Source: Candidatus Eiseniibacteriota bacterium (lineage in GTDB: Bacteria; Eisenbacteria; RBG-16-71-46). From it: a DNA stretch of 11,481 nt. Below, piece after piece: positions 1-11,481 of the stretch (position 1 is its first letter; the number at the start of each line of letters is the position of its first letter). A program made the translations under genes and the position numbers. The notes beneath the pieces were generated by a model that worked only from the letters and a program-made list of their open reading frames with translations, was not told the DNA's origin and searched no databases. The stretch covers positions 1 to 11,481 of the forward strand of contig JANLWX010000138.1 of the NCBI GenBank assembly GCA_031364845.1, in the 5' to 3' direction.

Positions 1-2
1 GC

Positions 3-77
3 GGGCGTCCGAGCTTTGCGGATGTCGATCCTGACACCGCGCTCATCGACCTCGAGTCTCTTCGTGACCGCTGCTGA
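3..77 (+). CDS. Possible 3' end of a gene entering from the left (…GRPSFADVDPDTALIDLESLRDRC*), product unknown
   Basis: Frame +3 is open from the window edge to TGA at 75-77, stopping just before the hairpin at 83-119 and converging on the tRNA. Only 24 codons are visible. Confidence 0.35.
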   Translation, partial: GRPSFADVDPDTALIDLESLRDRC

Positions 78-82
78 CCTCG

Positions 83-119
83 AAAAGAAGAAGCCCCCAA
101 GATTGCTCTCAGGGGCTCC
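83..119 (-). terminator. Rho-independent terminator downstream of tRNA-Ser
   Basis: Minus strand reads GGAGCCCCTGAGA-GCAA-TCTTGGGGGCTTC: a 13-bp stem with G-U pairs and a GNRA loop, followed by TTCTTTT, about 30 nt after the tRNA CCA. Confidence 0.85.
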
Positions 120-151
120 TGCCGGCACTTCCAAGGCTTTCAGCGCCAAAC

Positions 152-241
152 TGGCGGAGAGGGAGGGATTCGAACCCTCGAAGGAGTTGCCCCCTTAACG
201 GTTTTCGAGACCGCCCGATTCAGCCGCTCTCGCACCTCTCC
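152..241 (-). tRNA. tRNA-Ser, anticodon CGA, 90 nt, encoded CCA
   Basis: Minus strand GGAGAGGTGCGAGAGCGGCTGAATCGGGCGGTCTCGAAAACCGTTAAGGGGGCAACTCCTTCGAGGGTTCGAATCCCTCCCTCTCCGCCA. Acceptor stem GGAGAGG/CCTCTCC; anticodon stem GCGGT/ACCGT with loop CTCGAAA (CGA at 205-207); long variable arm AAGGGG-GCAA-CTCCTT; T arm GAGGG-TTCGAAT-CCCTC; discriminator G. Confidence 0.98.
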
Positions 242-250
242 ACCGCTAGG

Positions 251-278
251 ATTACACGAGTTAGCGGGTTGGGTGCAA
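251..278 (-). promoter_or_regulatory. Candidate sigma70-type promoter for the tRNA, overlapping the integrase 3' end
   Basis: Minus strand TTGCAC (273-278), 16-bp spacer, TGTAAT (251-256), ending 9 nt before the tRNA 5' G. A similar arrangement (TTGCGG-N16-TGAATT) sits at the same offset from the tRNA fragment at 7045-7088. Confidence 0.4.
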
Positions 279-416
279 GACGGGTGTGACCACTGATGTG
301 ACCATCTGTCCCTGAATTCGCGCGGCTTCGGCCATCACGTGCGCGTCGCTGAGGCGTCCGTATCGCTGCGTCGTGACGACGCTGGAGTGGCCGAGGATTG
401 CCTGGAGTGCCGAAAG
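261..416 (-). pseudogene. C-terminal remnant (51 aa) of a tyrosine recombinase/integrase
   Basis: Translates to LSALQAILGHSSVVTTQRYGRLSD…, the LGH-x4-TT-x2-Y motif containing the catalytic Tyr. The upstream HxLRH and Arg motifs are absent, and upstream of ~418 the frame runs into the end of the beta-helix gene. Confidence 0.85.
283..302. repeat. Paired TGTGAC direct repeats, candidate integrase arm-type sites (copy 1)
   Basis: GGTGTGACCACTGATGTGAC has TGTGAC twice at a 12-bp period and starts 42 bp from the tRNA 5' end. It is 18/20 identical to 7130-7149. Confidence 0.6.
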
Positions 417-439
417 CGGTCGGGTCACCGTTCCGGGAC

Positions 440-2281
440 TTAGCGCAACCGAATGATGCGCTCCACTTGATGACCGCCAGGGTAGCGATAGTCGAGGAAA
501 TAGATTCCCGGCGCCGCCGATGAGCCGAACCACTCCACTGAGTGTGCTCCGGCCTTCCGCGAACCGTTCACGAGCGATGCCACGTAGCGACCCTGGAGGT
601 CGATTACGTCCATCTCAACCTCGGCCTCGCGAGCAAGGGTGAAGCTGATTCGCAGCGGACCGAACGCGGGGTTCGGTGTTACGCGGACCAATTCGAATCG
701 GCCCGCCAAGCCCGCCAGCACCGACACGGGCTCACTGATCACGACCGCTTGGCCACCTTCTCTCGCGACGAGCCGGTACCAGTACTCCCGGTCTGTCAGG
801 GCGCTACGATCGATGGCTACGCTGAGATCACCGTCGACAGTTTGTTCAGTCGCCACTGCCGCCCACGGTCCCGCGACTACATTCGCCCGCTCAACCGAGA
901 CTTGAGTCAGTCGTGTCGGATCGGCAATCCGCCAACGCACTCGGACGCCATCATGTTCCCGGTCGGCTTGAAAAAGCGTTACCAGAGCTGGCGTTGACGC
1001 GCAGCCCAGACCCCGCGCACCAATCAGCCCGCACTCAGGTGCATCGAGCAACGGCGATTTCGCAGTCAGGCTGACGCTGTCGTTGTCGACGTCGCAGAAC
1101 AAGGGATCGACGAACAAATCCTGTGGCGACGGAGACATGCCGGACACTGCACCAGAGACGTTGGCGAACCAATCGTTGCAGGACAGGCTGGGAATTCGCG
1201 ACTGAGCTCCAACGATGAGACCGTATCCATCATTACCGTACGCGATGTTTCGCTGGATCCGAATTGCGCCATCCAGCCGTGACTCATGCACTTCGAAGCC
1301 AGAGCCGCCGTTGCCGAACGACGTGTTGTTCTGGACGGTGACTCCATAGTAGTCGCTGCGAGTCGAGATCACGATGCCGCTACCACCAGAACGTCCAACA
1401 ACGTTGCCCTCGACCTCTCCGCCCTCTCCGCCAATCTGAATCCCATCGAGCGTCGAGCCGAGAATCAGGTTGTTCTTCACGGTGACAGGGCCATCGGAGA
1501 TCGCGATCCCCACGCCACATGCGAGGACTTGATTGCCGGAGAATTCGGCAGATCCCGCGGACGGCGAATGAGCGTGAAGCGCTAGGCCGGGACAGTCCTC
1601 GATGAGATTGTTGCGAACGGTCAACTGGCCGTCTTGGATCGCGGCGGAAAAACCATTGTCGAACCCACGGATGATGTTGTCCGCGACGTAGCAGCCGGCG
1701 GACGTGTTGAGCGCGATCGCAACACTTCCCGGACCCGTCATTGTGCTGTTAGTCATCGTGAGCCCCGCATCGCTCTCGTAGCTGACGATGATCGGGCCGA
1801 AGACTCGGCAGGATTCGACTTCAACGTAGTGGATCAGGCTGAGGGCGGGATTCCCTCTCAACGTGCAATCCACGAAGCGGAGATGTCCGGGACCGTTGCC
1901 CGCCCCGACGGACGTCACTCCGGAGTCGATCTCGCATCCACGGAACTCCGTGTCCCCCCAATGGACGATCGGTCCGAGCACGTGCAGATTGCGGAAGTTG
2001 AAATCTCCCTCAACCGCGAACATCCGCGGCAACGTCGGAAGCACGCCGAATGAGTCCGGTACACCAATAACCGTGAGAGCGCACCATTGGATGCTGAGTG
2101 GTGATGGTTCCGAGTGGGCGCTCACCATGACGGTGTCGATGACCTGCGAGTGGTCGTTGATCGCGTCAACGACCGCTTGGACGGTCGGAAAATCCCCCGG
2201 AACAGTGACCGTCGCAGCGTAGACAGAGGTGACCATGAACAGGATCAGGGCCGTCAGCAGCGGAACAAGGGAGTGGCGCAT
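440..2281 (-). CDS. Secreted right-handed parallel beta-helix (pectin lyase-like/NosD-like repeat) protein with C-terminal Ig-like and FlgD-Ig/T9SS-CTD-like domains, paralog 1 (613 aa)
   Basis: Signal peptide MRHSLVPLLTALILFMVTSVYA. N-terminal VPGDFPTVQAVVD motif. Repeated VxNNxIxG/GIxI beta-helix rungs. DPLFCD…SPLL cap. C-terminal PNP…ISFTL…DLQGRYVASL…PGIYF…RIIRLR. RBS-like GAAGGA upstream. Confidence 0.9.
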   Translation of the reverse strand: MRHSLVPLLTALILFMVTSVYAATVTVPGDFPTVQAVVDAINDHSQVIDTVMVSAHSEPSPLSIQWCALTVIGVPDSFGVLPTLPRMFAVEGDFNFRNLHVLGPIVHWGDTEFRGCEIDSGVTSVGAGNGPGHLRFVDCTLRGNPALSLIHYVEVESCRVFGPIIVSYESDAGLTMTNSTMTGPGSVAIALNTSAGCYVADNIIRGFDNGFSAAIQDGQLTVRNNLIEDCPGLALHAHSPSAGSAEFSGNQVLACGVGIAISDGPVTVKNNLILGSTLDGIQIGGEGGEVEGNVVGRSGGSGIVISTRSDYYGVTVQNNTSFGNGGSGFEVHESRLDGAIRIQRNIAYGNDGYGLIVGAQSRIPSLSCNDWFANVSGAVSGMSPSPQDLFVDPLFCDVDNDSVSLTAKSPLLDAPECGLIGARGLGCASTPALVTLFQADREHDGVRVRWRIADPTRLTQVSVERANVVAGPWAAVATEQTVDGDLSVAIDRSALTDREYWYRLVAREGGQAVVISEPVSVLAGLAGRFELVRVTPNPAFGPLRISFTLAREAEVEMDVIDLQGRYVASLVNGSRKAGAHSVEWFGSSAAPGIYFLDYRYPGGHQVERIIRLR

Positions 2282-2336
2282 TCAATCGTCCTTCTGCCCA
2301 TGGGTCTAGGCGTGGATGGCGTGCTGCCCACCGACT

Positions 2337-2927
2337 TTAGTTAAACCGCACTCCCACCGACCCCATGACGAGATGCGTCGGGCGGCCGGCCGTGAAGATC
2401 TGATGCCATCGGGCTTGGATGGCAGGCGTTAGTTGAGGACGTATGGGTCGAGCGGGTCCCGAGACTTCGACTCCCAGGCTCAGGCCCAACGAGTGACGGC
2501 TGTACGACTCGGAAAACCCGTTGCGATAGCGATAACGGGCGATCGTCAAGTAGTCCCCGAGACCGACGACGTAATGAAGGCTCACCCTTTCGAGTGGTGC
2601 CCGGAATTTGACGAGAGGAACGAGGCCGAATGACCGGTGATGTGCATCGACGTCTCGTTCAAACGTCGATACAACTTCCATGGACACAGCTTCTTCCCAC
2701 CAGAGCCCTTCAAGACCGAATCCCACGGGGCTGTCGTTGTTGTTGTGAACGATGTCCAACTCGAGGCCGACGCGCAGGTTGAGATGCGCCGCGTCGCGGC
2801 GGCCGATGATCCGCCCCGCTGCCGCTCTCGCTGAAGACGACCAAGGGCTGGCGATGACGAGCGACGGCAGAATCAGAGAGGCCAAGAAGCATACCTGCCA
2901 CGCCAAGCGTGAACATGGCCTCAACAC
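2337..2927 (-). CDS. Hypothetical exported protein, probably a small outer-membrane beta-barrel (~196 aa; start uncertain)
   Basis: Hydrophobic N-terminal signal-like segment. Several strands with alternating hydrophobic/Gly residues (VGFGLEGLW, LHYVVGLGDY, LGLSLGVEVS, AIQARWHQIF). C-terminal VMGSVGVRFN resembles a BamA beta-signal. Co-oriented with its neighbours and fills the gap between them. Confidence 0.6.
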   Translation of the reverse strand: MLRPCSRLAWQVCFLASLILPSLVIASPWSSSARAAAGRIIGRRDAAHLNLRVGLELDIVHNNNDSPVGFGLEGLWWEEAVSMEVVSTFERDVDAHHRSFGLVPLVKFRAPLERVSLHYVVGLGDYLTIARYRYRNGFSESYSRHSLGLSLGVEVSGPARPIRPQLTPAIQARWHQIFTAGRPTHLVMGSVGVRFN

Positions 2928-2999
2928 AACGTGCCATTACATGGGTGTGGGGCAGGTTCCCACGTCCGCGCAGGCAATGCCATCGTCGTGATTAGAGGG

Positions 3000-4778
3000 C
3001 TATCGCAACCGAACCACACGGCTCACGTGACTCCCTCCCGGATAGAGGTATTTGAGAAAGTACAGCCCCGGCGAGAGAGATTGCCCCTTCCACTCCACTC
3101 CATGCTCTCCCGCTGCAAGGGATCCGTGAATCACTTCAGCCACATGGCGACCTTGAAGGTCGAGCACGTCGATTTCGATCTCGCCGTCGCGGGGCAGAGT
3201 GAAGGTGATTCGCAATGGGCCGAAACTTGGATTCGGGGTCACGCCGATGAGTTCAAACCGGCCTGCTGCACCCGCGACCACTGACCTGCCTTCGCCGATC
3301 ACAACCGCCTGCCCTCCTTCACGCGCGACAAGTCGGTACCAGTATTCCTGGTCCGCGACGACGCTACGATCAATGGCAACGCTGGCCTCACCCTCGGCAA
3401 ACCGCTCCGTCACGATCATCGCCCATGGCCCAGCGACATGATCTGATCGCTCGATCCAGATTTCGGCCAACCGTGTCGGATCGGCAAGCTGCCAGCTCAC
3501 GCGCACGCCCTCCTCCACGCGGTGGGCGGTGAACATCGTTACCAAGGTGGCCGTGGACGCGCAGCCCATACCCCTGGCCCCGATCAATCCGCAGCCCGGT
3601 GCGTTGAGCAACGGCGAATTCGCGGCGAGGCTGACGCTGTCGTTCGCGACATCGCAGAACAGAGGGTCGAGGGCAAGGTCAGTCGGCGATGGATCCACAC
3701 CCGAGACGGCGCTCGAATCGTTCCCAAACCAATCGTTGCAGGAAAGCCCGGGATCTACCGGCCCGATCGACAGCAACCCGTGCCCACCGTTGCCGTAGCC
3801 GATGTTGTGCGTGACGTCGTTCTGATCAGGGACTTCAGCCAGAAGGAATGCGAAACCGGAGCCTGCATTACCGAAACTCGTATTGTTGACGACCGCAATA
3901 TCTCTAATGAAGCTCATGGACGGACATTCCAGGTACAGACCGTGCCCGCCACATCTCCCGACAATGTTGCGTTCGATCCGAGCATCGGGGCCCGAGATTC
4001 CGACGGCAATGCCGTGACCAGCGCAATCGGTGACTGTGTTCTCCGACACTTGAACGATTCCGCTGACGCCTATCCCCGTCCCGCAATCCTCGATGACATT
4101 GCGTTCGACGATGACGATGGTCTCTTCACCGCCCGCGCTGATTGCCGACGCAAAGCCCCGGATCGTATTTCCACGGATCGAAACGTGCACATCTCCGGTG
4201 GCGGTGATCGCGGTGCCGTCACTCGGACCGGTAAACGTGGAGTTTCCGACGTTCAAGACTCCATCTTCCCGGAGCACGACCGAGCCCTGATCCAGCCAGC
4301 ACGCATTGATGTCGAGTCCCACATCGCTGTAGGCAAACACGGTTCCCGTAATCCTGCAGCCAACGAAACTCACTGAACGCGGTGACCCATCAATCCCGCT
4401 CGTAAACCCGGATTCGAGACGACATCCGTGAAAAGCAAGGAAGGCTTCACCGATCGTGTGAATAAGCCCGGTGAACCGCAAATTGACGAACGCGGAGATG
4501 TGGTTCGAGTTGACCGTCATGCGGCCAATCGAGGGTCGCGTCAATGAATCGCCCAGGCCCATGACCGTCAAGTCTTCAAGATTCACCGCGTAGAGCGAGT
4601 CCGTGACGACGCCCGGCTTCACGTAGACGGTGTCGAACCTGCCGGTGCTGTTCAGCGAATCCATCACAGCCTGGAGTGTCGGAATGTCGTCTGGAACCGT
4701 CACGCTCGTAGCATGGGCAGGCAGATGCGCGATCAGAAGAGCGACGATCGACAGTAGAAGCAAGGCAGAGCGGCCCAT
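3000..4778 (-). CDS. Secreted parallel beta-helix protein with the same C-terminal module, paralog 2 (592 aa)
   Basis: ATG at 4778 has GGAGGA 7 nt upstream, preferred over the TTG at 4793. Signal peptide ends AHA/TSVTVPDDIPTLQA. Same architecture as paralog 1; ends RVVRLR. Confidence 0.9.
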   Translation of the reverse strand: MGRSALLLLSIVALLIAHLPAHATSVTVPDDIPTLQAVMDSLNSTGRFDTVYVKPGVVTDSLYAVNLEDLTVMGLGDSLTRPSIGRMTVNSNHISAFVNLRFTGLIHTIGEAFLAFHGCRLESGFTSGIDGSPRSVSFVGCRITGTVFAYSDVGLDINACWLDQGSVVLREDGVLNVGNSTFTGPSDGTAITATGDVHVSIRGNTIRGFASAISAGGEETIVIVERNVIEDCGTGIGVSGIVQVSENTVTDCAGHGIAVGISGPDARIERNIVGRCGGHGLYLECPSMSFIRDIAVVNNTSFGNAGSGFAFLLAEVPDQNDVTHNIGYGNGGHGLLSIGPVDPGLSCNDWFGNDSSAVSGVDPSPTDLALDPLFCDVANDSVSLAANSPLLNAPGCGLIGARGMGCASTATLVTMFTAHRVEEGVRVSWQLADPTRLAEIWIERSDHVAGPWAMIVTERFAEGEASVAIDRSVVADQEYWYRLVAREGGQAVVIGEGRSVVAGAAGRFELIGVTPNPSFGPLRITFTLPRDGEIEIDVLDLQGRHVAEVIHGSLAAGEHGVEWKGQSLSPGLYFLKYLYPGGSHVSRVVRLR

Positions 4779-4841
4779 GCGGCTATCCTCCAAGACAATT
4801 GGCGACGTCCCTTGACGATAAATCGACGGCCTGGGGTCAGG

Positions 4842-6677
4842 TCAGCGTAACCGGATCACTCGCTCCACCTGATGGCCGCCCGGGAAGCGATAGTCTACGA
4901 GATAGATCCCGGGCGAGACCGATCTCCCACTCCACTCCACAGTGTGCGTTCCGGCGGCACGAGAACCGCCAACAAGCGAAGTCACAAGACGACCTTGGAG
5001 ATCGAGCACATCCACTGCGACCGACGCCTCTCGGGCCAGGGTGAAGCTGATACTCATGGGACCAAATCCGGGATTCGGCGCCACTCGGGTGAGCTCGAAT
5101 CGAGCAGCCATGCTTCCAGAAACCGACACGGGCTCACTGATCACGAATTCACTGCCGGCACCCACGACGAGACGGTACCAGTACCTGTGTTCGGGCTGCG
5201 CATTGCGATCAAGCGCGATGATCACGTCGCCTTCAGTGGTTCGTTCGGCGGCAACAACCGCCCACGGCCCGGCAATCACGTCCGCCCGCTCGACCCGCAC
5301 TTCGTAAAGGCGCGCAGGATCGGCCAGTCTCCAGCTCACTCGCACTCCATTGGCTTCGCGTTGCGCCGTGAACATCGTCACCAGCGTGGGCGTGGCCGCG
5401 CATCCCACCCCCCGCGCGCCGATCAATCCACATCCTGGTGCGTTGAGCAACGGCGAATCAGCGGCCAGAGACACACTGTCGAGATCGACATCGCAGAGGA
5501 GCGGATCGAGTGCCAGGTCGTCGGCAGATGCGCCTATGCCCTCGACAGCGCTCGAGTCATTGCCAAACCAATCGTTGCACGACAGCGTGAATTCCGCCCC
5601 GAGCGAGAGCAATCCGTGGCCGCCATTGCGGTAGCCAATGTTGTGCGTGACTACATCCGGCACGCCACCGTGAGCCGCCCGGGACACGGCGTCTGGATTG
5701 CTGTCCAAATCGCGGACGAACCCGGACCATGCGTTGTCATAGCTCGTGTTGTTGCGAACAGCGACGGCACCGTAAGTACTCCCGACGCGGCGCTCGATGA
5801 ACAATCCGTTACGGCCCGAGCGAGCGACGATGTTGCGCTCGCAGTTGCCATCAGTCTCGATCACACGAAGCCGAATGCCATCCCCGGTGCAATCGGTGAC
5901 GATGTTGCCTACGACCTGACGAGGGTTGGTTACATCGATGCCTATACCACAACGGCGCACTTGGTTCCCAAAGAGCGACCCATCTTCCTGCAATGACACG
6001 CCCACGCTGCACATTTCAATAACGTTGTTCGTGATGGCGAACGATCCATCACCGTAAATGGCAGTCCCCAGATCGCGGAACGTGCAGCCTTGGACTACGG
6101 TTTCGGGATCAAATCCGCCCACTGCCCTGACTCCGTAACTGGCCGGGCCTCTAAAGGCGCTGTTGCGCACCGTCAGCCGGCTATCCTCTTGGTTCACGAT
6201 GGTGCCTTGGTCGAACCAGCATGAATCGACATTTACGAAGGCATCACTCACGGCGAGCACGGTCCCCGAGATGCGGCAACCGACCATCGTTACATTGCGC
6301 GGGCCTCCATTGATCAACGTTGTGAAACCGGCCTCGAATCGACAGTCCCGAAAGATGGAGTTCCCTTGCGTGGCTGTTTGAACCGAGCCCGAAAACCGCA
6401 GGTTGACGAACGTGGCGTCTTGGTCGAACAACATTGAAGCGACCGAAGGACGGCTCAAAGAATCGCCCAGCCCGATCACGATGTGATTACCGAGATTGTG
6501 TGTTTCGATCGGGCCAGACACGACGCCCGGCTTCACGAAGACCGTGTCCGCGGGCTGGCTGTTCAACGAGTTGAACGCTGCCTGGAGCGTTGCAAAGTCG
6601 TCAGGAACGGTCACTGACGTGGCATACGCGGGCGCTACTGTGAACAGCAGCAGGGCGATGGGCAAAGAGCGTCGCAC
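4842..6677 (-). CDS. Secreted parallel beta-helix protein with the same C-terminal module, paralog 3 (611 aa)
   Basis: In-frame GTG at 6677 has AAGGAGA 8 nt upstream and gives signal peptide MRRSLPIALLLFTVAPAYA/TSVTVPDDFATLQA, matching the paralogs. The ORF-track start at 6803 is probably too long. Ends RVIRLR. Confidence 0.9.
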   Translation of the reverse strand: MRRSLPIALLLFTVAPAYATSVTVPDDFATLQAAFNSLNSQPADTVFVKPGVVSGPIETHNLGNHIVIGLGDSLSRPSVASMLFDQDATFVNLRFSGSVQTATQGNSIFRDCRFEAGFTTLINGGPRNVTMVGCRISGTVLAVSDAFVNVDSCWFDQGTIVNQEDSRLTVRNSAFRGPASYGVRAVGGFDPETVVQGCTFRDLGTAIYGDGSFAITNNVIEMCSVGVSLQEDGSLFGNQVRRCGIGIDVTNPRQVVGNIVTDCTGDGIRLRVIETDGNCERNIVARSGRNGLFIERRVGSTYGAVAVRNNTSYDNAWSGFVRDLDSNPDAVSRAAHGGVPDVVTHNIGYRNGGHGLLSLGAEFTLSCNDWFGNDSSAVEGIGASADDLALDPLLCDVDLDSVSLAADSPLLNAPGCGLIGARGVGCAATPTLVTMFTAQREANGVRVSWRLADPARLYEVRVERADVIAGPWAVVAAERTTEGDVIIALDRNAQPEHRYWYRLVVGAGSEFVISEPVSVSGSMAARFELTRVAPNPGFGPMSISFTLAREASVAVDVLDLQGRLVTSLVGGSRAAGTHTVEWSGRSVSPGIYLVDYRFPGGHQVERVIRLR

Positions 6678-6918
6678 GCGGTCATTCTCCTTCCGATGGT
6701 CGACCACCGGGTAGATCGAGTTTATCTCCCTCGCGTGAGGGTGGGGATCATACACCCGTGGATCCGGCGTTGTTCTCATTATTGGAGCGGGATAGCGGGT
6801 CAATGAGGGCCTGTCCTGATTTCTGTGTAAGCCCCTTCCGGGTCACGCGGGCAGTCGTCCTTCCGACATGATGGCAACCTGATTCAGGGCGAACGCCACT
6901 ATATCGTCCTGGTTGATG

Positions 6919-6936
6919 GGTGTACGATCGGTGTAC
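6919..6936. repeat. GGTGTAC direct repeat pair (11-bp period), candidate arm-type or regulator site
   Basis: GGTGTACgatcGGTGTAC in non-coding DNA about 110 bp inside the att-like tRNA fragment. Confidence 0.4.
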
Positions 6937-7044
6937 ACCTCATCGTCCTTTCTGGCCAGCAACAAGACCCTGCCGAAAATGCGGCACGGGCTTGGAATTG
7001 CAAGGGCTAACGTGATTTCCGCGGATCGAGGCGGTGTGGGTCAA

Positions 7045-7088
7045 AACGATTTTCGAGACCGCTGATTCAGCCGCTCTCGCACCTCTCC
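7045..7088 (-). repeat. Degenerate copy of the 5' half of tRNA-Ser(CGA); att-like junction
   Basis: 7064-7088 equals 217-241 (25/25). 7050-7062 equals 202-214 (13/13, includes the anticodon loop). 7045-7048 equals 197-200. Differences are G201 to A and CC215-216 to a single T. No variable arm, T arm or 3' acceptor strand follows. Confidence 0.92.
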
Positions 7089-7129
7089 GGGACGAGAAAT
7101 TCACGACTTACGAGGTTCTCCGCAACTCA

Positions 7130-7149
7130 GGTGTGACCGCTGCTGTGAC
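7130..7149. repeat. Paired TGTGAC direct repeats, candidate integrase arm-type sites (copy 2)
   Basis: GGTGTGACCGCTGCTGTGAC starts 42 bp from the 5' end of the tRNA fragment, the same offset as copy 1. Confidence 0.6.
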
Positions 7150-7302
7150 GAACTTCCCCATTGGGGACCTCGCGACGGGACTACAATGGTGTCCGTCGTT
7201 ACGGGGCACGAGTCCAAGACGCGCGCGAACCGCCTTCGACTGTTCGGCGAGTGCCCCGCCGAGATCGTTGGGTGGCCCGTCCAATTTCGAATTGGAGTAA
7301 AC

Positions 7303-7692
7303 ATGAGAAGCAACTTCCTGTACGCATGCTCCGGTCTGCTCGCCTTGACCCTCGCGGTTCACGCCGGCGCACGAATGGCAGCCGCACAGGATCCCGATCC
7401 CATTGTCGGAATTTCGACAGCCCCCTGCGGGGGTCTCGTTGCGGTCAGCCAGTCTGGGATTGTCTACGCGAAGTGCCTCAATGTGTGGGAACAGAAGGCC
7501 AACGTGCCCGGTCCGGTCAGTTGCATCTTTGGAGAACCCGGCCAATACATCATCATCGTCCTGCAGAATGGCGACGTCTACGAAACGCCCGGCGCCAACA
7601 GCTGGGAATTCTATGCAAACGGCAACGTCCGCGGCGGTCCTACGCCTGCGAACAGGAAAAGCCTGGGGCAGGTGAAGACGAAGTGGCGCTGA
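7303..7692 (+). CDS. Small secreted beta-rich protein (129 aa) with C-terminal tag PTPANRKSLGQVKTKWR
   Basis: GGAG RBS at 7294-7297 before the ATG at 7303. Signal peptide MRSNFLYACSGLLALTLAVHAG…AAA. Two similar beta-hairpin units (LVAVSQSGIVY…W and IIIVLQNGDVY…W). Basic C-terminal motif. Confidence 0.8.
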   Translation: MRSNFLYACSGLLALTLAVHAGARMAAAQDPDPIVGISTAPCGGLVAVSQSGIVYAKCLNVWEQKANVPGPVSCIFGEPGQYIIIVLQNGDVYETPGANSWEFYANGNVRGGPTPANRKSLGQVKTKWR

Positions 7693-7734
7693 CGGCAACA
7701 GTTGCTCCAGCGCCCGAGAATTCGGGAGGGGTGC

Positions 7735-10497
7735 ATGGTTCTCTCAAGTGTCATTAGGAGACGGAAGCCGCCTCTCGGTTGCCGGCGCGTTGTAAGGCTC
7801 TCGTGGGCGCTACTGTTCGTCCTCGCTAAAACGCACACCGCGCTTGCCCAGACGGTTGACCCGGCGCTATGGGTCACCGATGGGGCGGTCAACTCCGTGG
7901 TCCACTACGCGGGGACGATCTACATCGGCGGCTCGTTCAACCACGTGCAACCGATAACAGGCAGCGCCGTGGCACTAGACGCGAGCACCGGGGCGGCGCG
8001 GCAGCCTTACCCTGAAGTGATAGGCCCCGCGAATTCCGTCGCGGTCGTGACAGCCTCCGTGTCTGCCGTCGTACCGGATGGGAGCGGAGGCTGGTACATC
8101 GGCGGAAGCTTCACTTCCGTCCGTGGTCAAGCGCGTCGCGGACTCGCACAACTGGATGCCGATGGAAACGTCACTTCATGGAATCCGGACGTGAACGGTA
8201 CCGTAAGCGCCCTGGCGTTGAGCGGGGGCACGATCTTCGCGGGAGGCAGCTTCACGAGCATCGGAGGCCAGGCGCGCAACAACATCGCCGCGCTGGAGGC
8301 CGCCACCGGAGCGGCGACGAGCTGGAACCCCAACGCGAGCGGCCCTGATCCATACGGCGCCAGCGTCTACGCCTTGGCGGTTAGCGGGGCCACGGTCTAC
8401 GTCGGCGGTGACTTCAAGTACATCGGAGGCCAGCCACGGAACTCTATTGCCGCGCTCGACGCCGCCACCGGAGCCGCCACGAGCTGGAACCCCGACCTCA
8501 GACCCTCGAACGGCGGCGTTCTCGCCCTGATGGTAAACGGGAGCACGGTCTACGCTGGGGGCGGCTTCGATAGCATCGGACGCCAGCCGCGCAACAACAT
8601 CGCCGCGCTGGATGCCGCCACCGGCGTCGCCACGGCCTGGAACCCGAACGCCACCCGGTTAGTCTACACACTGGCGATGAGCGGGGGCACGGTCTACGCC
8701 GGTGGGCTCATGGATAGCATAGGTGGGCAGGCGCGCACCGGAGTCGCCGCGCTCGATGCAGCCACTGGCGTCGCCACGAGCTGGAACCCGAACGCGAGCG
8801 GTAATTATCAATACGTCATTACCCTGGCGGTAAGCGGGAGCACAATTTACGTCGGAGGCGGCTTTACCGGCATAGGCGGCCAGCCGCGCAAGCAAATCGC
8901 CGCGCTCGATGCGACGACCGGCGCGGCCACAGGCTGGGACCCAAACGCGACCCTCGGCCCCTATCTTAGCGCTCCTACCGTCCTCGCCCTGGCGGTGAGC
9001 GGGGGCACCGTCTACGCAGGTGGCACTTTCTTGAGCATTGGCGGCCGAACGCGCAACAACATCGCCGCACTCGATGTCGCGAGCGGCGCCGCCACAAGCT
9101 GGGACCCGGACGCGAACGGCGACATCCTTGCCCTGAGCGTGGTGGGGGGCACGGTTTACGCTGGCGGAGACTTCACCAGCATCGGCGGCCAGCCACGCAA
9201 CCACATCGCCGCGCTCGACGCCGCAAACGGCACGGCCACGAGCTGGAATCCGGATGCGAATGGCGGCGTCGTCGTCCTGGCGGTGAGCGGGAGCACCGTC
9301 TACGCCGGCGGCAGCTTCACGGACATAGGTGGCCACCCGCGCAGTCGAATCGCCGCGCTCGATGCCGCCACCGGCGCCCCAACCGATTGGAACCCGGATG
9401 CGAACGGCATCGTTCGCGCCCTGGCGGTGGGTGAAGGCACGGTCTACGTCGGCGGCGGATTCAATAGCATCGGCAGGCAGCCGCGCAGCTTCATCGCCGG
9501 GCTCGATGCCGCCACCGGCGCCGCAACGAGCTGGGATCCGAACGCGAACAACGTTGTCCTCGCACTGGCGGTGAGCGGGGGCACGGCTTACGCGGGCGGC
9601 CACTTCACCAGCATCGGCGGCCAGAACCGCAATAGCATCGCCGCGGTCGATGCGGCCACCGGTGTCGCCACAAATTGGAATCCCAACGCGGATGGTGCCG
9701 TCCGCACCATAGTGGCGAGCGGGAACACGGTCTACGCGAGCGGGGCCTTCGGCCACATCGGCGGGCAGAGGCGATTCAGTATCGCCGCGCTCGATGCCGC
9801 AACCGGTACCGCCACAATCTGGGATGCGAAACCCAACAACTACGTCAACACCTTGGCTGTGAGCGGGAGCACGGTCTATGCCGGCGGCAATTTCCGCAGC
9901 ATTGGCGGGCTGCCCCACTCTGGCATCGCCGCAATGACCGATGACACCACGCCCACGCTGCTCTCGCTGGTAAGCGCCCAGGCTGAGCCGGGCCGCGTGC
10001 GGCTCACGTGGTTCGCCGAGGATAAACACGGCCTGACCGCGACCGTGTACCGGCACACCGTGAAGGAGGTATGGGGCGTTGTCGGCGAAATCTCGACCGA
10101 TGGGACCGGGCGGCTGGTATTCGAGGACACGCGTGTGATCCCAGGCGAGCGCTATGGCTACCGGCTGGGCATCTTGGTGCACGGATCCGAGGAGTTCCTA
10201 GGGGAGACGTGGGTGGACGTGCCGCGCGCGCCGGAGTTCGCGCTGGCCGGTTTGCGTCCCAACCCGACGTCGAGCGCCCTCGTGGTGGCACTCTCGCTGC
10301 CGGACGCCGCTCCGGCGCGGCTCGAGCTGCTGGACCTTGCGGGGCGCCGGATGCTCGTTCGAGACGTGGGAGCGCTGGGGGGCGGGAGCCACGTCGTGGC
10401 ATTGGCCGAGCCGAGAAGGATCGCGCCTGGCCTCTACCTGCTCCGCCTCGTGCGTGACGGTCGGGCGCTCATGGTGAGGGCGATCGTCGTTCGTTAG
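7735..10497 (+). CDS. Secreted repeat beta-propeller protein (14 blade-like repeats) with C-terminal Ig-like and FlgD-Ig/T9SS-CTD-like domains (~920 aa)
   Basis: GGAGG RBS 5 nt before the ATG at 7735. Signal peptide ends TALA/Q. Repeats of about 49-56 aa with consensus ALAVSGxTVYAGGxFxSIGGQxRNxIAALDAATGxATxWNPxANxxV. Tail TPTLLSLVSA…YGYRL…FALAGLRPNP…DLAGRR…PGLYLLRL…RAIVVR. Confidence 0.92.
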   Translation: MVLSSVIRRRKPPLGCRRVVRLSWALLFVLAKTHTALAQTVDPALWVTDGAVNSVVHYAGTIYIGGSFNHVQPITGSAVALDASTGAARQPYPEVIGPANSVAVVTASVSAVVPDGSGGWYIGGSFTSVRGQARRGLAQLDADGNVTSWNPDVNGTVSALALSGGTIFAGGSFTSIGGQARNNIAALEAATGAATSWNPNASGPDPYGASVYALAVSGATVYVGGDFKYIGGQPRNSIAALDAATGAATSWNPDLRPSNGGVLALMVNGSTVYAGGGFDSIGRQPRNNIAALDAATGVATAWNPNATRLVYTLAMSGGTVYAGGLMDSIGGQARTGVAALDAATGVATSWNPNASGNYQYVITLAVSGSTIYVGGGFTGIGGQPRKQIAALDATTGAATGWDPNATLGPYLSAPTVLALAVSGGTVYAGGTFLSIGGRTRNNIAALDVASGAATSWDPDANGDILALSVVGGTVYAGGDFTSIGGQPRNHIAALDAANGTATSWNPDANGGVVVLAVSGSTVYAGGSFTDIGGHPRSRIAALDAATGAPTDWNPDANGIVRALAVGEGTVYVGGGFNSIGRQPRSFIAGLDAATGAATSWDPNANNVVLALAVSGGTAYAGGHFTSIGGQNRNSIAAVDAATGVATNWNPNADGAVRTIVASGNTVYASGAFGHIGGQRRFSIAALDAATGTATIWDAKPNNYVNTLAVSGSTVYAGGNFRSIGGLPHSGIAAMTDDTTPTLLSLVSAQAEPGRVRLTWFAEDKHGLTATVYRHTVKEVWGVVGEISTDGTGRLVFEDTRVIPGERYGYRLGILVHGSEEFLGETWVDVPRAPEFALAGLRPNPTSSALVVALSLPDAAPARLELLDLAGRRMLVRDVGALGGGSHVVALAEPRRIAPGLYLLRLVRDGRALMVRAIVVR
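7880..9935 (+). repeat. Intragenic coding tandem repeats (about 147-170 bp units; boundaries approximate)
   Basis: Recurring DNA cores such as atcgccgcgctcgatgccgccaccgg and gagctggaaccc stay in frame with the propeller blades. Confidence 0.85.
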
Positions 10498-10543
10498 ATC
10501 CTGCCGGACCACCCGCGTCAACACGGGCGTGAGCGAACGCTTA

Positions 10544-11152
10544 TCACTCAGCCCGCGATGCGGCCCGTGCAATGCGGGCGATCTCCTTGGCGATGTCCTC
10601 GGGAGCAAGAACAAAATCGATGCACCCGCTTTCGATTGCGCTAACAGGCATATCGGGCGCCTTGGCTGTGTCTGGACTCTGCGCAATCGTAATGCCACCC
10701 ACATCTCTTATGCCGCAAAGTGCGGCTGCGCCGTCACCGTCATATCCCGAAACGATGATTGCGATCAGTTTGCCGTCCCAATGCTTGGTGAGGGATTGCA
10801 GAAAGACCGTGATCACGTCAGGCCATCCCCGCGGCTTGGATATCGGCTTCAGGCGGAACTCACCATCAAGGATATGCAGATCGCGCTGCTCCGGGATGAT
10901 GAACACGTGGTTGGGCTGGATATCCAGACGTTCTGTGATCAGTTCAACGGGCATCGTGGTGAAACGTGGAAGAATCACGTGGAGCTGGGTGGATACGGTT
11001 CTCAGGTGATTGACGATGACGATGGCAACCCCCAAATCAGCCGGGAGATGTCGAAGTAACCGCGTGTAGGCGTCGAGCCCACCGGCCGAACCGCCGACAC
11101 AGACGACGGGAAAGTCTTTTGAAGAGTCTTTGGCAATACCCTTGGCACTCAT
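10544..11152 (-). CDS. cheB: Stand-alone CheB-type protein-glutamate methylesterase domain protein (~202 aa, no receiver domain)
   Basis: VVCVGGSAGG (catalytic Ser), IVIVNH (His), VSGYDGDGAAAL (Asp), GGITIAQSPDTA…DMPVSAI…IDFVLAPEDIA. Tandem stops TGA TAA. Start is ATG 11152 or TTG 11158. Confidence 0.9.
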   Translation of the reverse strand: MSAKGIAKDSSKDFPVVCVGGSAGGLDAYTRLLRHLPADLGVAIVIVNHLRTVSTQLHVILPRFTTMPVELITERLDIQPNHVFIIPEQRDLHILDGEFRLKPISKPRGWPDVITVFLQSLTKHWDGKLIAIIVSGYDGDGAAALCGIRDVGGITIAQSPDTAKAPDMPVSAIESGCIDFVLAPEDIAKEIARIARAASRAE

Positions 11153-11329
11153 TCGCAATCATCCGCCCCCGAGAGTTCATTCAGATGGAACGCCGGAAAA
11201 ATCGCCGAACATGGGCACCGCGACCTTTTCCGTCGAGCATCTCCGGATCCGTTCCCGCACTCTATACCTTCCAGTCCAGCGCGTGCAGAGGTCTGATGCC
11301 CGCTTGATGACCGGATGAATGTCCTCTGA

Positions 11330-11481
11330 CCAACCGTTCGCTCGGCCGCGTCGTTCGGGCTCACCGCGCTGGCGGTCGTCGACATAGCGCTCGAGCGCTG
11401 ACCCCTGATTGCGCGCCTGGATGATCGCCTTGCCGAGTGCTGACCTCGGCAGCGCCTTTGTCTCCGCGAGACCGAGCCACG
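11330..11481 (-). pseudogene. Degenerate, frameshifted IS66-family transposase (TnpC) fragment running off the window edge
   Basis: Minus strand gives WLGLAETKALPRSALGKAIIQARNQGSALERYVDD and then, in another frame, VSPNDAAERTV. This matches the IS66 TnpC segment WL…LPKSxLGKAIxYxLNQWxxLxRYxxDGxLxIDNNxAERxIR. Similarity is lost after ~11330. Confidence 0.75.

Follow-up and report, generated by a model that had tools for sequence, protein, structure and literature searches.

Positions 7045–7158 of the DNA analysed here are probably the dead right end of an earlier integrative element, displaced by a later insertion into the same anticodon loop; this reading comes from sequence comparison. The stretch in question (hereafter the window; 11,481 nucleotides) is the whole of contig C231, which ends at position 11481, in the assembly of genome G000 (4.6 Mb, 66% GC). 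The observation behind the reading is real, and assignment of the junction as a defective member of a known, uncommon class of tRNA-gene islands is well supported.

The window carries an intact tRNA-Ser(CGA) gene at positions 152–241 (minus strand). Upstream of it on the same strand, 6.85 kb away, lies a displaced 5' half of the same gene (7045–7088), which corresponds to tRNA positions 1–45 and reaches through the anticodon loop, where the crossover falls; 42 of 45 positions match the gene, and the gap in the alignment is a 1-nt deletion. The equivalent fragments in relatives break at tRNA positions 38–43. We refer to the boundary beyond the 5' end of the intact gene as junction 1 and to that beyond the fragment as junction 2, with distances (+) counted outward from each tRNA 5' end. 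At junction 1, the right end adjoining the gene (242–304, minus strand) contains a promoter-like block, an integrase stop codon (261–263) and an arm-like repeat pair, TGGTCACA twice (285–304). The integrase gene is a 3' remnant (261–421, minus strand) of roughly the last 50 codons, covering positions 280–325 of a 328-position profile. The rest of this unit (242–7044; 60% GC) consists of cargo on the minus strand, namely three beta-helix genes with T9SS-like tails and one unassigned ORF: (i) a beta-helix gene at 440–2281 (the third paralogue), (ii) a 196-aa ORF at 2337–2927, with a signal-peptide-like start and without a family match, (iii) the second beta-helix paralogue at 3000–4793, 45–51% identical to the other two, and (iv) a beta-helix gene at 4842–6803, with a FlgD-Ig / T9SS-like C-terminal domain and, judging by its sequence, a true start that is probably near 6684. 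The left-end arm-like pair of the unit, GTACACC twice with an 11-nt period (6919–6936, minus strand), is unlike the right-end motif at 285–304. Beyond the fragment comes the right-end remnant of the earlier element (7089–7158, minus strand), with nothing integrase-like past about +70. It is followed by genes for a small protein with a signal-peptide-like start and without a family match (7303–7692, plus strand), a DUF5122 beta-propeller repeat protein with a T9SS-like tail (7702–10497, plus strand) and a stand-alone CheB methylesterase domain (10544–11158, minus strand). At the opposite edge, positions 1–151 (minus strand) are the probable left end of a 3'-restoring element, with a terminator-like hairpin at 89–120.

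Several of these genes have close kin. The beta-helix proteins with T9SS-like tails form an expanded family (440–6803; contigs C112, C127 and C226 of G000; contigs C2 and C6 of G001) whose members are 45–67% identical, and beta-helix homologues in a same-genus genome also adjoin array ends. The CheB gene has a 78% paralogue at another contig end (G000:C35:62–688). The propeller gene has a 37% homologue inside an array unit of G076 and many paralogues elsewhere in G000; the genes right of 7158 may be cargo of the earlier element.

The flanks beyond the two tRNA 5' ends are related. Ungapped and in register, they are identical at 45 of 70 positions (binomial p 3.6e-11 against a background of 0.264), and a search of 9.17 million genome positions pairs each flank with the other as its top match besides itself, the runners-up reaching 38 and 40 of 70. 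Identity drops to chance after about +70. The original prediction had picked out shared motifs within these flanks, and the sequence agrees on their placement: TTA (a minus-strand TAA) occurs at +20 in both flanks (positions 261 and 7108); GCAA lies at +34 of both junctions; and the 20-mers with the TGTGAC pair, at 283 and 7130 (+42), match at 18 of 20 positions. TGTGAC-N6-TGTGAC occurs in just two places in the 4.6-Mb genome, which are the two junctions. The minus-strand peptides ending at the two stops also read as predicted, but their alignment is not independent evidence, the 16 codons being the same bases as the DNA motifs. An assembly artefact is unlikely at junction 2, because contigs from two samples of one study span it without differences (run X1, which may be the source sample, covers 4523–10583 in one contig, and a contig of run X2 covers 7033–7512).

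Junction 2 also resembles element ends in other genomes. Over +11 to +60 it matches L086, which carries a full integrase, at 41 of 50 positions; it is 87% identical to L168 over 92 nt, and it shares its promoter-like block with an integrase-bearing end, G080:C111. Junction 1 is 88% identical at the DNA level, over 206 nt, to L104, a full integrase element, while the two junctions match each other at 35 of 50 positions over 50 nt. Since their closest relatives differ, the two junctions are likely to stem from separate insertions. The predicted identity of the DNA right of 7088, as the end of an earlier, related element, thus holds for 7089–7158, given the match to L086, and is shown for no more than these ~70 bases. 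The junction 2 repeat pair (GTCACA twice, 12-nt period, 7132–7149) has one changed base in the distal arm site. A search of the G000 assembly for the left end of the earlier element found neither a further 5' half nor a GTCACA pair of 11-nt period.

The fate of the integrase at junction 2 can be read from the same comparisons. A profile of ten integrase ends scores positively on junction 2 up to +60, about zero over +61–70 and below random beyond. The frame at 7108–7698 obtains no score against the integrase family profile and none in Pfam, and no shifted weak integrase homology was found over +71 to +148, where 97% of random stretches score equally. Because the end profile fails past about +70 and the family profile finds nothing in the frame, the integrase, which had been described as almost fully eroded, was instead deleted at a sharp boundary near +70. 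The integrase remnant in 242–7044 scores below the Pfam cut-off (16.9 of 27.1 bits), and complete relatives carry PF00589 above it. With only this sub-cut-off remnant in the one unit and none at junction 2, the sequences mark both window units as defective derivatives of integrase-bearing elements.

The same end structure recurs in relatives. A search of 61 and then 102 related genomes, plus fetched stretches, yielded 88 tRNA-Ser(CGA) 5' ends, of which 49 belong to genes and 39 to displaced fragments, from 57 in-group genomes. Seventy-four ends were scored, 14 of the 88 being set aside for having less than 700 nt upstream, one a false match (G080:C209:281); the fragment filter passed over two real fragments (G004:C117:16250 and G045:C205:13960), and imperfect pairs were counted as no pair. 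Integrase sequence ends within 700 nt at 21 of 29 ends with an arm-like pair versus 6 of 45 without one, counts that include both window junctions and in which kin are not independent. In complete elements, a tyrosine integrase gene of ~325 aa ends at or near this end block; for the subfamily most similar to junction 1, translation terminates at the +20 TAA and the final residues are encoded by the repeat pair. The integrase family is present in 65 of 201 genomes of a phylum sample, with three members in G000, and its best-scoring members adjoin Ser, Cys, Arg and Lys tRNA genes or halves.

In five of seven complete units with a near-full integrase, the right pair (12-nt period) and the left pair (11-nt period) share the same motif: GGGGTCAC, CGGCACA, TCGGTAGCA, CAGTAGCAG and TCGGTAGC, respectively, at both ends of the five. 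One of the remaining two matches by eye, the other only partly. The left pair sits ~190 nt inside the left end of complete units. The arm motifs at tRNA-Ser(CGA) may go by integrase subfamily (GGTCACA, GGCACAC, GTAGCCA, GTAGCAA, GTACACC and GTACCC). By analogy with known attachment sites, the repeat pairs would be arm-type sites flanking the core and would be bound by the integrase. In two complete small units the integrase is accompanied by restriction genes and by replication genes, Prim-Pol/D5 in one and Rep plus HTH_17 in the other, and small complete units also carry secreted-protein genes (90 ORFs scanned from 10 stretches); from their gene content, they look like small integrative replicons.

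Scans for the junction pattern returned nine matches in genomes (five in Candidatus Eisenbacteria, two chance matches without a tRNA half and one Ser(GCT) end of another lineage), 25 in metagenomes (eight chance matches without a tRNA half and four such Ser(GCT) ends) and none in viral contigs. Chance matches and Ser(GCT) ends were left out of the counts. The layout of the Ser(CGA) ends also exists at a different tRNA in five records from another lineage (L077, L085, L087, L092 and L101; one of them Rudaea), where an intact tRNA-Ser(GCT) gene follows a CTGTCACA pair and an integrase tail.

Between the tRNA 5' end and the repeat pair lies a promoter-like block, represented by TTGCAC at 273–278 in junction 1 and, in junction 2, by TTGCGG at 7120–7125 and TAAGTCGTG with the TAA at 7108–7110. 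Two of its parts, a TTG near -36 (58 of 83 in-group ends, 0 of 8 outgroup loci) and TCGTGTA near -18 to -12, are kept by in-group ends with or without a pair or integrase. The block resembles the TTGAC-N17-TA(T/G)ATT tRNA promoters of G000, and this likeness and the conservation suggest that it acts as a promoter; a strict sigma-70 scan called no promoter in the window and none at a relative's intact end. The block possibly overlaps an IHF-like site, TAAGTCGTG presumably resembling a site of that kind, and it could have been native to the order's ancestor and then captured by elements. The lengths of retained ends form a noisy continuum (13 of 64 at 35–50 nt), in which a promoter floor and an arm floor are not separable; they speak weakly for a promoter floor. 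The block alone is no proof of an element end; the arm-like pair is.

The predicted tandem stacking of related elements occurs in relatives, which have stacked displaced 5' halves. In the single-contig genome G020, two fragments precede the gene at distances of 45 and 48.5 kb; the array of G085 comprises three fragments plus the gene; and G045 has four 5' halves within 15 kb on one contig (C205). The left arms of three C205 halves are almost identical, and Ser/Thr kinase genes with TPR or PD40 repeats are present in two of these three units. On G001:C17, one near-full integrase precedes a fragment and another precedes the gene. Fragment and gene differ in D-arm sequence within one array in G091:C214 and in G029:C21, which indicates that the 5' half travels with the element. 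The window holds one fragment, with no further tRNA-Ser(CGA) 5' half elsewhere in the G000 assembly and no overlap between the ends of C231 and any other contig of that assembly. A contig order based on a 268-nt, 96.6% match between C138 and C35, together with the CheB paralogue on C35, was set aside, as both look like paralogy. Two tRNA-Ser(CGA) 5' halves in single-contig genomes (G020:C1:1618867 and G013:C1:3395) are separated from the gene by over 1 Mb, and one of them has its left pair intact; their positions suggest rearrangement at these sites.

The unit between the gene and the fragment has mismatched arms, GTACACC on the left and GGTCACA on the right, so that 242–7044 is likely, as far as its arms can tell, to be a fusion of two elements, with at least three insertions on this side of the gene. 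A GTACACC pair of the same motif and layout lies behind a tRNA-Ser(TGA) 5' half in G038; the pattern occurs in 3 of 102 genomes, one of them by chance. Insertion has probably occurred from the other side as well. G000:C87:1–845 contains a contig-cut family integrase, a CGTACCC pair and the 3' 62 nt of tRNA-Ser(CGA), followed by Ser(GGA) and Ala genes. The 3' half of the window gene differs from the C87 copy, whose variable arm is that of a same-genus relative, and GGGGTACCCC left pairs matching that of C87 follow the tRNA-Ser(CGA) gene in G029, G004 and G003. A 3'-restoring element thus probably lies left of the window gene, with its integrase and displaced 3' half at C87:1–845, the link between the two contigs being presumed. 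We infer that the 5' half of the gene at 152–241 came from the nearest element, and its 3' half probably came from this second element type; both halves may then be element-supplied in G000.

Other tRNA genes of G000 have comparable surroundings. For tRNA-Arg(CCT) there are two displaced 5' halves and one 3' half (C111:6423–6600, C226:7933–8072 and C152:8368–8405). The C111 and C226 upstream ends agree at 96 of 100 positions as far as a CCGTAGCCA pair, past which they are unrelated; no integrase match lies nearby, and the C226 half sits inside a 9-kb 3'-type island of tRNA-Leu(TAA). A displaced 5' half of tRNA-Ser(TGA) lies 4 kb upstream of that gene, with a single long ORF of low GC content in between (C138:10748–14749); similar Ser(TGA) ends occur in G020, G032 and G038. 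A small integrase remnant lies just upstream of tRNA-Tyr (C119:8134–8406).

Outgroups point to the ancestral neighbour of the gene. In six of eight class-level outgroup loci, tadA ends within 100 nt of tRNA-Ser(CGA), and in four it overlaps the tRNA. At L010, L012, L017 and L022 the tadA frame enters the tRNA gene, and in three of these the stop comes only past the anticodon loop; insertion at those sites would change the TadA tail, and TadA proteins of the in-group end in diverse new tails. Six in-group genomes have both genes on one stretch, and there the tRNA gene is 1.9, 9.1, 11.2, 13.2, 51 and 68 kb from tadA. No island-free tRNA-Ser(CGA) locus was found among the 57 in-group genomes, and the tadA–tRNA junction was seen only in the class-level outgroups. 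The most distal copy in an array had been predicted to retain native chromosomal flank; relatives do not follow this, their distal copies being without a tadA-abutting flank (19 kb from tadA in G020, ~0.9 kb in G004). A search of in-group tadA tails for a trace of a tRNA half found none (best 12–15 of 25, eight genomes).

These features can be joined into a mechanism. The attachment site of the circular element would comprise, in order, the integrase tail, the 12-nt-period arm pair, the promoter, the tRNA 5' half, the anticodon-loop crossover and a left arm with the 11-nt-period pair. Integration would rebuild the gene from the promoter and 5' half of the element and the resident 3' half, pushing the old promoter and 5' half to the far side; the newest unit would therefore lie nearest the gene. 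Later deletions would strip the integrase and replication genes, tending to spare the promoter-proximal bases for as long as the end drives the gene, and would have left ~180 bases at junction 1 and ~70 at junction 2. Of this scheme, the comparisons show the sequence homology, the ends at integrase tails, the matched repeats on complete units and the stacked fragments in relatives; integrase binding, promoter activity, the order of events and selection on the promoter are proposed.

The boundary at about +70 could instead be functional: 7089–7158 would then be the minimal attachment arm of an integrase-less cassette, moved in trans or cis, in an integron-like or CIME-like array. Homology does stop just past the distal arm site, both at junction 2 and in L079; an integrase-less 3,276-bp unit of G020 carries a perfect ACCGTAGCCA pair at either end; the two tRNA-Arg(CCT) ends of G000 likewise part company at the arm pair; and the three family integrases of G000 might act in trans. 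Yet among seven true units without a full integrase, one has perfect matched arms, one imperfect arms, four lack the right pair and that of the window is mismatched, and at junction 2 itself one base of the distal arm site is changed and the tRNA half lacks 1 nt. The lengths of retained ends do not cluster clearly at the arm boundary, and no excision joint appears among the 15 listed of 24 joints, in contigs, which drop rare variants. As for integrons, a full family integrase scores 61 bits against a TIGR02249 cut-off of 265, and the junctions are tRNA halves with direct-repeat pairs. We consider a cassette of this kind unlikely.

Two further accounts dispense with an earlier element at junction 2. 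If 7089 onward were ancestral chromosome, the shared motifs would be a native tRNA promoter region copied by the element, in keeping with the genome-like GC content of 7702–10497 (0.672 against 0.663) and with the presence of CACGA(G/C)TTA and GCAA at most in-group ends, including those without integrase or pair. That recurrence removes these two motifs from the signs of an element end proposed in the original prediction; the TGTGAC pair stands. A native promoter region should show the pair in island-free relatives. Judged from the outgroups and from the in-group ends lacking both pair and integrase (39 of 74), it does not: all eight outgroup loci and the majority of integrase-free in-group ends lack the pair, which belongs to the coding tail of subfamily integrases where these are intact. 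Moreover, the ancestral neighbour tadA lies on another contig of G000 (C138), with no tRNA half after it. The native-flank account is largely refuted for the pair and very improbable as a whole. Alternatively, junction 2 might be a local duplicate of junction 1, by segmental duplication or gene conversion, since, of 31 other ends compared, the one most similar to junction 2 over +39 to +70 is junction 1 (24 of 32). Both junctions nevertheless have closer relatives elsewhere (L104 for junction 1, L086 and L168 for junction 2), and we give local duplication almost no credence. A displaced, dead element end thus remains our preferred reading of 7045–7158.

A broader proposal, which we advance tentatively and hold to be somewhat doubtful, is that across the order tRNA-Ser(CGA) has been uncoupled from tadA and has only the promoter of the last-inserted element. 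Insertion would then work as a one-way ratchet, each event installing a new promoter and 5' half and deletion stripping each unit to the promoter and no further. The resulting 2–68 kb gap would hold defence and secreted-protein genes, several integrase subfamilies would share the one site, both gene halves would be element-supplied in G000, and some matched-arm, integrase-less units would still be mobile cassettes. The junction itself is the fossil of a known process; it cleanly marks a hot spot shared across a lineage of this uncultured phylum, at which the otherwise uncommon 5'-restoring mode is standard. Island finders that require an integrase will miss such arrays, the matched arm motifs offer testable integrase–site pairs, and the locus makes it testable whether a host tRNA gene depends on a mobile-DNA promoter. 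Our literature search found no paper combining Eisenbacteria, integrase and tRNA, and a published element-borne promoter or array of this type may exist beyond its reach.

The closest known counterparts are the 5'-fragment islands catalogued by Islander (Hudson, Lau and Williams, PMC4383910), which, in the available sections of that report, account for 159 of 3919 islands; tandems with at least two members number 125. The window shares with them an intact tRNA gene, a same-strand upstream 5' fragment, a break in the anticodon loop, tyrosine integrase sequence beside the gene and, probably, tandem stacking. It differs in that Islander requires an integrase per unit, and both window units have lost theirs (a 50-codon remnant in one, none detectable in the other); neither a promoter carried by the element nor arm motifs specific to a subfamily come up in those sections. 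A passage of PMC6563490, citing Zhao and Williams 2002, describes recombination at the 5'-distal part of tRNA genes as considerably less frequent; in the order studied here, that orientation is the usual one throughout (39 of the 88 ends, from 57 genomes, are displaced fragments). At the Dehalococcoides ssrA gene (PMC3146451, in the portion available), a single small-RNA gene likewise hosts many tandem islands, of which 15 lack an integration module, and older units are fixed and ameliorated. Those islands use a serine recombinase, unlike the window, and lie downstream of ssrA, so they need supply no promoter. In tRNA-dependent lysogeny, as far as the accounts available to us go, the phage brings a separate, whole tRNA and the gene is not rebuilt at the junction; here, the gene is rebuilt. 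Finally, in lambda-type heterobivalent attachment sites (KplE1 IntS, PMC2951348; mycobacteriophage attP, PMC10865867; excerpts of both), pairs of arm-type sites flank the core, and the elements described here have the same motif on both sides of the core in five of seven complete units, with different motifs in the unit of the window.
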